Source of the DNA: a virus | UHGV virus genome: UHGV-1351408 | Length of the DNA stretch: 64,000 nt | Strand: one strand, 5' to 3' | Part shown: positions 47,993-58,537 of the stretch, piece after piece | Position numbering within the stretch: the first letter of the stretch is position 1 | Layout: every line of letters starts with the position of its first letter | Notes under the pieces: generated by a model | The model's input: only the letters and a program-made list of their open reading frames with translations | The model's database searches: none | Told to the model about the DNA's origin: nothing | Position numbers and translations under genes: made by a program

Positions 47993-56008
<8,016 letters not shown>

Positions 56009-56009
<1 letters not shown>

Positions 56010-56248
56010 TACATTTTTCCTGCTCTTCTAAGTTCGTTGTAAGCAATTTCCTCTTTATACGACCTCTGAATTTCAAGAAATTGTCTCAATGATAATAAAT
56101 CAGAGAATGTCATAGCAAAGAGTTGGTCAAGTGTTTCTTTACACCCTTCCATACCATAAATAGCAAGCACAAATTTCATCTCGTCTGCTTCTTCATAGGT
56201 TGCCTCTACAGCAGCATCAGTCAGTGGTGTCTGTAGAGTGTTACCCAT
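56009..56248 (-). CDS. Tail assembly chaperone, frameshift-extension (T-like) segment
   Basis: In the -1 frame relative to 56251..56649; open from the slippery site through this ORF. Confidence 0.5.
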
Positions 56249-56250
56249 GT

Positions 56251-56649
56251 TTACTGAGAAGTTAGGCTTTTGAAAATGCTTGCTTCGAAAAAACTTCCGA
56301 AATTTGCCTCCAGCGCAAATGCTAAGTAATCAATAAATTCACCATAGTTTGCTTGGAAGTATGTATCAATATTAAGTGGGAAGTCATCAACAGTTGCCCC
56401 TTGAAATAATAGGGTAGCCATTTCTTCAAGGTTAATTTCTTCAATTCTGTCAAAACAAGCTTCAACAAGTTCTTTAAATGGAACCATTGGAGCTTCTTTC
56501 TTATCTTTATCAGTCAGACTTGATAGCATCTGTGCAAAAGTTGGAACAACAATTTTACCCAACTTCATAGACATCTTAATACCATCTCTTGCCCCAAGCA
56601 GAACGATATTTACTTTCTTACCATTAATTACTCTAGATTCTGTTTTCAT
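56251..56649 (-). CDS. Tail assembly chaperone (G-like)
   Basis: 132 aa between the tube and tape measure genes; contains a slippery site near its 3' end. Confidence 0.55.
   Translation of the reverse strand: MKTESRVINGKKVNIVLLGARDGIKMSMKLGKIVVPTFAQMLSSLTDKDKKEAPMVPFKELVEACFDRIEEINLEEMATLLFQGATVDDFPLNIDTYFQANYGEFIDYLAFALEANFGSFFEASIFKSLTSQ
56287..56293 (-). other. Candidate -1 programmed ribosomal frameshift slippery site (T_TTT_TTC)
   Basis: In-frame AGT TTT TTC (S F F) about 12 codons before the stop; a -1 shift continues R S K H F Q K P N F S V N M G into ORF 56009..56248 with no stop. Confidence 0.5.
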
Positions 56650-56674: not shown

Positions 56675-56712
56675 AAACAAAAAAGGGGAAGACCTTTTAA
56701 AGTCTCCCCCTT
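56675..56712 (-). terminator. Intrinsic terminator after the tail tube gene
   Basis: Imperfect GC-rich hairpin followed by UUUUUUGUUUCUUUU on the minus-strand transcript. Confidence 0.6.
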
Positions 56713-56722
56713 ATAGGATTTA

Positions 56723-57169
56723 TTAAACACTTGACGCTGGAATTGTAGAAGTGTAGTCTAGCTTCTCACAACCAAAAATCCAAGTTTTAGAGTTCTGGTC
56801 ACGACCAAGTTCAATCTGCGGTAATTCCTGCAACCAAGCATTAATACCAGTTGCCAGAACAGAGCCTGATGGGTCGTAGATTACGAAGTTAGAAGAGATA
56901 TCTTCTTCAAGTTCCATATTGTCTTGTTTAGCTTGAATTGCAGAAAGCATCTGATTAGAGAGAGAAGTCTGCATTAGCTCAATCTCAATAGTACCTGTCT
57001 TGTCTGCATTTCTTGTCAGAGCAACCTGACCACCTGCACCTACAACTGGTGTAATAAGTGGTGATGTTCTCTGTAGACGTAAGAATGAATCTGGAGCAAA
57101 GCCTTCAATAGCAATGCCGTTCCAGCTACACACAACGTCTTTAGGGGAATATTGCTGATACATAGCCAT
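56723..57169 (-). CDS. Tail tube protein
   Basis: 148 aa directly downstream of the sheath gene. Confidence 0.6.
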   Translation of the reverse strand: MAMYQQYSPKDVVCSWNGIAIEGFAPDSFLRLQRTSPLITPVVGAGGQVALTRNADKTGTIEIELMQTSLSNQMLSAIQAKQDNMELEEDISSNFVIYDPSGSVLATGINAWLQELPQIELGRDQNSKTWIFGCEKLDYTSTIPASSV

Positions 57170-57184
57170 TCCAATTTACCTCTA

Positions 57185-58537
57185 TTATTCGTAAGCCACT
57201 GTACCTTTCAAGTCAACATCCAAGATAGCCCCTGCTAAGATACCTGCGAAGGTAACATCTTTCAGGATACGAGCTTTCTTGTCTGCCAAAGCAACTTGAG
57301 AGGCTTTAGGAACATTAACTGTGTAAGATGACAGGAAGTTTCTGTTGACTGCTCTTTGTAGAGAGGTTTCAATGACTTGACGAATACGGGTAATACCAGT
57401 ATCATCATAAGTAATCTTACCACCCTTCTGGTTAATTAGCAAGTCTCTCAGAGAAGTTTTCAGGTCTGATTCCAACCAGTCAACGCCACGGATGATATCA
57501 ATCCATTCCCCACCAGAAGTAATCCCTCTACGAACCACTGGAACACCACCATCAAGGTCAATAAAGTTACAGTGACGTGCATCTAAAGCTGACTTCTGAA
57601 TACTTGTCAGAGGTCTCTTATTAGCTGGCTGTAGAGAAGCAGCTACACCAGTCAACTGAGCATTACCCCAAGCAATTGACCCTGCATCGTATGGAGCACC
57701 GTAAGCAATGTATGCCATCTCTGGATAGTCTTCTGCTGCTGTGTGATGCCACAAGCAAACTGTGCGGGTATACATACTCTTAGCAAGCTGTGCTGGAACA
57801 TCGTTTGCACTGTTTAATTCTGTACCTTGTAGTGCTGATACATCAGAGTTAGCAGTGAAGAAGATTTTCTTACGAGCCTGAATCTCAGAAGCCATTGCTA
57901 AGACAAACTGTTGAGTTCTGTCTTCTGCTGCAATGAAATACCAGTCAGTTGAATAAGCTTCAATAGCTGCTAGAGCAGTTGATGCTGTATCGGCAGTTGT
58001 GCTTGCAATAGATACAGTCTGTGCTGTAGTTGTTACTTTCACAAAGTCATTATCACCAGCTTTAGTGATAATCATTGTGGCAGAACCACCGCTACCAGTT
58101 ACGTTCACAGAAACCTTATCTTTAATTGTTGGGTCAGCTTCAATCTGTGTTTTGAACTGTTGCAAAACTTTCTCAGCAGTATCTGATTCCACTGCTGTAT
58201 ACTGATATGGTTGAGAAATTCCACCGCCAGCAGCTACAGTAATTGAGTAGTCTGTACTTTCGGTAACAGCATCAGGAATTGATACAGTATACTGCATAGC
58301 ACGTCTACCAATATAAAGCTGAGTTACTTTAGGAGTCTGACTCCAAAGTTGTTTAGCAGCCTTATATGCAGCAGAGTTTTCATCGAAATCTTCAGCAACT
58401 TCAGTTAAGGAAGTGTAACCACGCACTCTTTCTTCAAAGTTATCTGTTGAAGCTAAGAATAGTGGCAGCCCAAAACCTTCTCTTGTAGTTCCTGCGGTGT
58501 TCAATGTAATATCTACATTAACAATTGGATTCCACAT
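57185..58537 (-). CDS. Tail sheath protein
   Basis: 450 aa immediately upstream of the tube gene; canonical sheath-tube-chaperone-tape measure order. Confidence 0.7.
   Translation of the reverse strand: MWNPIVNVDITLNTAGTTREGFGLPLFLASTDNFEERVRGYTSLTEVAEDFDENSAAYKAAKQLWSQTPKVTQLYIGRRAMQYTVSIPDAVTESTDYSITVAAGGGISQPYQYTAVESDTAEKVLQQFKTQIEADPTIKDKVSVNVTGSGGSATMIITKAGDNDFVKVTTTAQTVSIASTTADTASTALAAIEAYSTDWYFIAAEDRTQQFVLAMASEIQARKKIFFTANSDVSALQGTELNSANDVPAQLAKSMYTRTVCLWHHTAAEDYPEMAYIAYGAPYDAGSIAWGNAQLTGVAASLQPANKRPLTSIQKSALDARHCNFIDLDGGVPVVRRGITSGGEWIDIIRGVDWLESDLKTSLRDLLINQKGGKITYDDTGITRIRQVIETSLQRAVNRNFLSSYTVNVPKASQVALADKKARILKDVTFAGILAGAILDVDLKGTVAYE

Follow-up and report, generated by a model that had tools for sequence, protein, structure and literature searches.

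A probable programmed -1 frameshift in the gene for the tail assembly chaperone of a Felix O1-like myophage

The virus genome UHGV-1351408 was analysed here as one stretch of 64,000 nucleotides, which we call the window. Our analysis indicates that its tail assembly chaperone gene very probably undergoes programmed -1 ribosomal frameshifting as in the G/GT system of lambda, by which a short frame-0 product (G, 132 aa) would be accompanied by a longer fusion (GT, 213 aa). As read from the sequence, the case for the frameshift rests on the position of a slippery heptamer, on the long open -1 frame that follows it and, above all, on the conservation of both in relatives. The feature is real and ordinary, and it is already known and annotated in close relatives.

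The chaperone gene and its reading frames

On sequence identity, the window is assigned to a Felix O1-like myophage of the genus Felixounavirus. Many deposited phages share 96-98% identity with its 4.8-kb tail segment, and the chaperone region is 100% identical to that of phage ECP2307. The host given for GenBank entry MG065664 ('Campylobacter phage A132'), Campylobacter jejuni, looks doubtful; over the region, the entry matches Felixounavirus at 98% identity.

The tail genes lie on the minus strand and begin with the tail sheath gene (58537..57185, 450 aa), which matches phrog_205 tail sheath (E = 1.5e-124) and PF11863 and is annotated as tail sheath in NC_028825. It is followed by the gene of a 148-aa virion structural protein (57169..56723; PF11681 and phrog_280), which occupies the position of the tail tube gene, between the sheath and chaperone genes. 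The two chaperone reading frames, G (56649..56251) and T (56248..56009), are consecutive ORFs between the tube gene and the 742-aa tail tape measure protein gene (56009..53781; PF20155 TMP_3, E = 2e-17; phrog_4036, E = 0), and the -1 frame overlaps the last part of G. Between the tube and chaperone genes there is also a terminator-like hairpin (56683..56712, minus strand) of 13 pairs, 6 of them G-C, followed by the T tract TTTTTG; AYO145A carries an annotated rho-independent terminator at this site. Owing to the hairpin, the chaperone and tape measure genes may be transcribed less than the sheath and tube genes.

The G ORF begins with the ATG at 56649 and ends with the TAA at 56253..56251. Its translated product matches the Pfam family PF21822 (Phage_TAC_15) over profile positions 1-124 of 127 with an E-value of 1.2e-19 and 71.5 bits, against a curated gathering cut-off of 22 bits, and it matches phrog_1613, tail assembly chaperone, with an E-value of 8e-49. 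The preliminary description of this locus had called the 132-aa protein a tail assembly chaperone, and these matches bear out that assignment. The PF21822 profile ends at about residue 124 of G, which is where the shift would occur. A profile of six fusion proteins gave no match to PDB sequences of solved structures at E ≤ 1, and the NCBIfam search likewise returned no match.

Read directly from the sequence, codons 119-121 of G are AGT TTT TTC (56295..56287), and they contain the slippery heptamer T_TTT_TTC (56293..56287, minus strand) in the X_XXY_YYZ register. Past the heptamer, frame 0 continues for 11 sense codons (EASIFKSLTSQ) before the TAA. From the C at 56287, the -1 frame reads CGA AGC AAG and onward (RSKHFQKPNFSVN) and runs into the ATG of the annotated 79-aa ORF (56248..56009), which matches phrog_4963. 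This extension, the T part (56287..56009, minus strand), is open for 92 codons up to the TAA at 56011..56009, and its stop overlaps the ATG of the tape measure gene by 1 nt. The predicted GT fusion is thus join(56649..56287, 56287..56009), with 213 aa. The same heptamer had been placed in the preliminary description about twelve codons before the stop of G, with an open -1 frame through the 79-aa ORF and a fusion directly upstream of the tape measure gene; its coordinates are correct, and the reading of the -1 frame and the 1-nt overlap agree with the other two statements.

Among the 19,484 codon positions in the 88 putative genes of the window, a scan found 69 in-frame heptamers of the X_XXY_YYZ type, or about one per 280 codons, and the heptamer alone is therefore weak evidence. 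For only three of the 69 does the -1 frame continue for over 90 codons beyond the stop of the gene that holds the heptamer, and the chaperone gene accounts for two of these three. The third, A_AAG_GGG (52999..52993, minus strand), lies two codons before the stop of a Dit-like gene (52984..53781), and the -1 frame that starts from it covers the following gene entirely (52643..52984), whose product is similar to the Pam3 gp18 plug. Since this heptamer coincides with the Shine-Dalgarno sequence of that following gene, it is probably incidental.

The other formal heptamer within the chaperone gene, A_AAT_TTC (56299..56305, minus strand), is not conserved. It leads into the same -1 frame from a position 12 nt 5' of the conserved heptamer, and its product would differ from the 213-aa fusion only by GS to RK. 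It arises by a synonymous AAC to AAT change and is rare, occurring in one of the 21 IMG/VR Felixounavirus contigs that carry this block of sequence. Because A_AA.U_UU.C belongs to a heptamer class rated as efficient in E. coli (PMC4066793), the window phage might make more GT than its relatives; that is, the second heptamer could lift the GT:G ratio above theirs.

Conservation of the slip site and of the -1 frame

For comparison we used the 57 related loci first fetched, namely 12 from GenBank, 43 from IMG/VR and 2 from Vequintavirinae. One of the two peptide patterns in the IMG/VR scan contained SFF, which favours loci with that peptide but no specific choice of codons; BLAST supplied the GenBank and Vequintavirinae loci, which are free of this bias. 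The loci span Felixounavirus, Mooglevirus, Suspvirus, Kolesnikvirus, unclassified Hafnia and Pectobacterium phages, uncultured IMG/VR contigs and the Vequintavirinae phages CR8 and Av-05. Their G proteins are in part strongly diverged, with 28-50% identity to that of the window in the uncultured contigs and 26-28% in the rV5-like CR8 and Av-05. The relatives tested against PF21822 (CR8, Av-05, Tian and Wc4-1) are all members of the family.

A T-run at the homologous position, together with a long open T frame, was found in all 57 loci, and the exact T_TTT_TTC in 56 of them, the exception being Escherichia phage CL1. The heptamer falls at the same peptide in the relatives, N-[FY]-[GS]-[SC]-F-F. 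In every locus with the exact heptamer (56/56) the -1 frame is open for 79-124 codons. Where annotated coordinates were available for comparison, it extends up to the tape measure gene or stops a few bases short of it, except in CR8 and Av-05, in which about 50-65 nt separate the two. These counts uphold the earlier claim that the recoding is conserved. A stop codon in the -1 frame of close relatives had been named as the observation that would speak against the fusion, and comparison with the chaperone pairs of related phages revealed no such stop in the relatives examined.

The codons of the slip site are more informative than the peptide. Among 16 representative lineages, the two slip-site Phe codons are TTT and then TTC in 16 of 16, whereas Phe elsewhere in the same genes is encoded by TTT 69 times and by TTC 71 times, close to 50:50. 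The neighbouring Phe and Asn codons vary freely as well. The codon before the T-run is AGT, TCT or TGT; it differs in codon family and in the residue that it encodes (Ser or Cys), yet its 3' T is always kept. This fixation of the slip-site codons, while the preceding codon changes and other Phe codons vary, leads us to conclude that selection acts on the nucleotide heptamer and not on the peptide.

At the protein level, six aligned fusion products, from the window and five other Ounavirinae lineages, are homologous over their whole length. In Erwinia, Hafnia and Pectobacterium phages, the homology also covers residues of the T extension that are encoded upstream of every potential start codon. 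We regard the frameshift as functionally important for the phage.

Two of the compared groups deserve a separate description. In the rV5-like phages CR8 (Cronobacter phage, locus L056, 1248-1254) and Av-05 (Escherichia phage, locus L057, 1173-1179), both with a PF21822 chaperone, T_TTT_TTC is located at N-Y-G-C-F-F and the open -1 frame spans 123-124 codons; in these records, an unrelated 'hypothetical protein' is annotated for the downstream part. In CL1 (locus L008, OK040806), positions 657-663, homologous to 56293..56287 of the window, hold seven T's instead of six. There, G and T form one continuous 213-aa ORF, which is annotated as a single 'tape measure chaperone'. Either the seventh T is an error in sequencing the homopolymer, or CL1 is a natural variant that makes only GT.

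Proposed mechanism, stimulatory signals and alternatives

In the proposed mechanism, most ribosomes would make the 132-aa G protein and stop at its TAA. A minority would slip back by one base with the P and A sites on UUU and UUC of U_UUU_UUC, both tRNA-Phe re-pairing from UUU UUC to UUU UUU in a tandem -1 slippage, and would then translate 92 more codons in the -1 frame to give the 213-aa GT fusion. By analogy with lambda, the shared G part would bind the tape measure protein and the T part would recruit the tube subunit. A fixed slip rate would set the G:GT ratio needed for correct tail assembly, and neither G nor GT would end up in the virion. Our analysis establishes the anatomy of the sequence, the family membership, the synteny, the nucleotide-level conservation of the heptamer and the absence of an independent start signal for T; the slipping itself, its frequency and the roles of G and T are inferred.

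The heptamer appears well suited to this function. In E. coli, the class H_HH.U_UU.Y ranks with the most efficient heptamers for -1 shifting. IS elements use U_UU.U_UU.C, whose shift rate exceeds 0.1% even when a stimulator is missing (PMC4066793). Nevertheless, because no downstream RNA stimulator is evident, the slip efficiency is expected to be low, a few percent or less, and driven by the heptamer, possibly with the help of a GGAGG sequence 13 nt upstream.

Folds of the window, a consensus fold of 8 lineages and separate folds of 15 lineages revealed no significant or conserved RNA structure downstream of the heptamer, with the exception of one uncultured contig. In the window, the 80 nt 3' of the heptamer give a folding z of +0.37, and a 107-nt fold gives z = -1.56, with a hairpin that starts about 37 nt downstream of the heptamer. 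The consensus fold of the 8 lineages has an energy of -3.9 kcal/mol, and a single pair in it is compensatory. Stimulated -1 frameshift cassettes of the dnaX or IS3 type have a stable hairpin or pseudoknot that starts 5-9 nt downstream of the slip site; the folds of the window reveal no such structure. The exceptional contig is IMGVR_UViG_3300034983_000081 (locus L054, 1681-1739), the only lineage with a strong hairpin, which starts 6 nt downstream of the heptamer and has an energy of -27.9 kcal/mol and a z of -5.8; this lineage may have acquired a classical stimulator.

The Shine-Dalgarno-like GGAGG (56307..56311, minus strand) is a putative upstream stimulator, and its spacing of 13 nt falls inside the range of 6-17 nt that was searched for such elements in PMC4066793. 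GGAG or GAGG occurs 11-13 nt upstream in about 10 of the 16 lineages; the Hafnia and Erwinia phages lack it. Since the element has this limited distribution and coincides with conserved Leu-Glu-Ala codons, its role is uncertain.

Directly 3' of the heptamer, a block of 19 nt (56268..56286, minus strand; GAAGCAAGCAUUUUCAAAA; GAAGCAAGCATTTTCAAAA) is identical or differs by one base across five lineages, being shared by Felixounavirus, Mooglevirus, Suspvirus, Kolesnikvirus and a Hafnia phage (the window and loci L004, L007, L009, L010 and L011). The G proteins of the lineages that share it are, in the most distant cases, only 40-48% identical to that of the window. No RNA fold is predicted in the block. 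Its conservation likely reflects dual coding in two conserved frames.

We considered whether the frameshift is tuned by an unconventional signal other than RNA structure, with A_AAT_TTC possibly raising the GT:G ratio in the window phage. This reading is prompted by the near-invariance of the 19-nt block, which lacks a predicted fold, and by the invariance of the nascent peptide N-F-[GS]-S-F-F; the block could act in the mRNA channel, or the peptide in the exit tunnel. We consider such tuning unlikely.

A different origin of the fusion, which we judge to be quite improbable, would be transcriptional slippage. RNA polymerase would add an extra U on the T6 run, and some of the mRNAs would then encode G-T in one frame, to be read by standard translation. 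The slip site is indeed a homopolymer run in which one extra T gives the exact fused frame, as in the deposited T7 of CL1, and the failure to find an RNA structure that would stimulate ribosomal slipping is compatible with it. However, productive transcriptional slippage in bacteria has been described for runs of about 9 A or T (PMC5009743), whereas the run here comprises six T's and a conserved C. Polymerase slippage is independent of the reading frame, whereas ribosomal tandem slippage predicts what is observed in 16 of 16 lineages, namely a frame register that is never shifted and a C at position 7.

The model implicit in most GenBank records involves no recoding, G (132 aa) and T (79 aa) being separate proteins and T being made from the ATG at 56248 by termination-reinitiation. 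The spacing is suitable for this in the window phage, in which the ATG lies 2 nt after the TAA of G; Mooglevirus and Suspvirus likewise have an ATG shortly after the G stop, and many records annotate two genes. The start signals of T, however, do not support the model. The ATG at 56248 lacks a Shine-Dalgarno sequence, with a pairing energy of -0.1 kcal/mol compared with -3.9 to -12.6 kcal/mol for 18 neighbouring genes, and it is the weakest of the 19 tail-module genes; the start of the G gene has -6.1 kcal/mol. No T start codon is conserved in the relatives. Kolesnikvirus, the Hafnia and Pectobacterium phages and uncultured relatives have no equivalent start, and conserved residues such as CP.T[DE].AV are found upstream of the first Met. 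In the Erwinia and Pectobacterium records, no second ORF is annotated.

Moreover, two separate genes can explain neither the invariance of the heptamer at synonymous positions nor a -1 frame that is open across an overlap of 11-33 codons in every lineage. Reinitiation at the ATG at 56248 could yield a separate T as a minor product in the window phage, but it cannot be the conserved mode of expression. As an account of the locus without any recoding, the two-gene model therefore seems to have very little chance of being correct.

Finally, the view of the heptamer as a chance by-product of a conserved Ser-Phe-Phe peptide, without a role in expression, was rejected on the codon-level evidence from the 16 lineages and is extremely improbable: in-frame heptamers are common in the window and the SFF residues are invariant in the protein alignment, but conservation of a peptide does not fix codon choice, the T is kept where the position-0 residue becomes Cys in Vequintavirinae, and the -1 frame is open in all lineages.

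Annotation and comparison with known systems

Programmed -1 frameshifting of the chaperone gene already appears in the records of some close relatives. A joined CDS is present in Citrobacter phage Moogle (KM236239) and in the Felixounavirus Salmonella phage Meda (MH586731), the latter with the note 'Tape measure chaperone frameshift product'. The frameshift has also been stated in print for the Citrobacter phages Moogle, Michonne and Mijalis (PMC4319497, PMC4591319, PMC5543628), and these statements are annotation calls. Our literature searches found no direct evidence, such as a junction peptide, a reporter assay or mutagenesis, for any phage of the Ounavirinae or Vequintavirinae, nor, for Felix O1-like phages, data on a fixed G:GT ratio, on a need for both proteins in tail assembly or on their absence from virions.

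The remark in the preliminary description that such recoding is often missed in annotation applies well to this group. Two separate genes are given in RefSeq NC_028825 and in BPS17W1, JLBYU32, Sf17, SUSP2 and SarahDanielle, and from three Erwinia or Pectobacterium records the second part is missing. The Felix O1-like records thus fit the general under-annotation of frameshifts reported by the PRFect authors.

The correct gene model for the window is a 132-aa chaperone together with the 213-aa joined product, instead of a pair of small genes independent of each other. In the majority of deposited genomes of Felix O1-like and rV5-like phages, RefSeq included, the two-gene model persists or the second part is lacking. 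One invariant T_TTT_TTC site in the PF21822 chaperones of Ounavirinae, of the two Vequintavirinae checked and of uncultured relatives could provide a simple rule for correcting such records. The practical value of our finding lies in annotation, and no concept is changed by it.

Xu, Hendrix and Duda (2004) reportedly described a conserved tail chaperone frameshift of the G/GT type. Four of its defining features are found at the present locus as well, namely the placement of the ORFs, an in-register slip site, conservation in diverged relatives and the lack of start signals for T.

In tail type and motif, the closest analogue of the window appears to be the E/E+E' pair of phage P2 (Christie et al. 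2002), a myophage chaperone pair that is said to lie between the tube and tape measure genes. Its -1 shift reportedly takes place on the T-rich heptamer T_TTT_TTG and has reportedly been proven by experiment. The P2 pair differs from that of the window in protein family and in genome type, P2 being a temperate phage of the P2-like type.

The gpG/gpGT system of phage lambda, reportedly the subject of studies by Levin, Hendrix & Casjens (1993) and by Xu, Hendrix & Duda (2004, 2013, 2014) and summarised in PMC5009743, shares with the window two overlapping ORFs between the major tail and tape measure genes, as well as an in-frame heptamer near the end of the first ORF at which a -1 shift leads to a longer fusion. 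The heptamers are different, G_GGA_AAG in lambda and T_TTT_TTC in the window. Lambda is a siphophage, whereas the window represents a contractile-tailed phage with a chaperone of family PF21822. The lambda shift is low-level and takes place without a strong RNA stimulator, and the window is likewise without an evident one. Lambda tails assemble correctly only with G and GT at a ratio of about 30:1, G binding the tape measure protein and the T part recruiting the tail tube subunit (PMC5009743).

Moogle, Michonne, Mijalis and Meda carry orthologues of these genes and share with the window both the heptamer and the -1 extension. The G protein of Meda differs from that of the window at 3 of 132 residues, and the fusion product of Moogle is 76% identical to that of the window. 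Relative to these four phages, the only addition in the window is the rare second heptamer, A_AAT_TTC, 12 nt upstream.

The tail assembly chaperones of T4-like phages have the same role as that of the window, serving as chaperones of the tape measure protein in contractile-tailed phages. To judge from the title of Vladimirov, Gautam & Davidson (2022), as cited in PMC10885494, they use a non-frameshift mechanism; by that title, the window differs from the T4-like chaperones in keeping the classic frameshift architecture intact.
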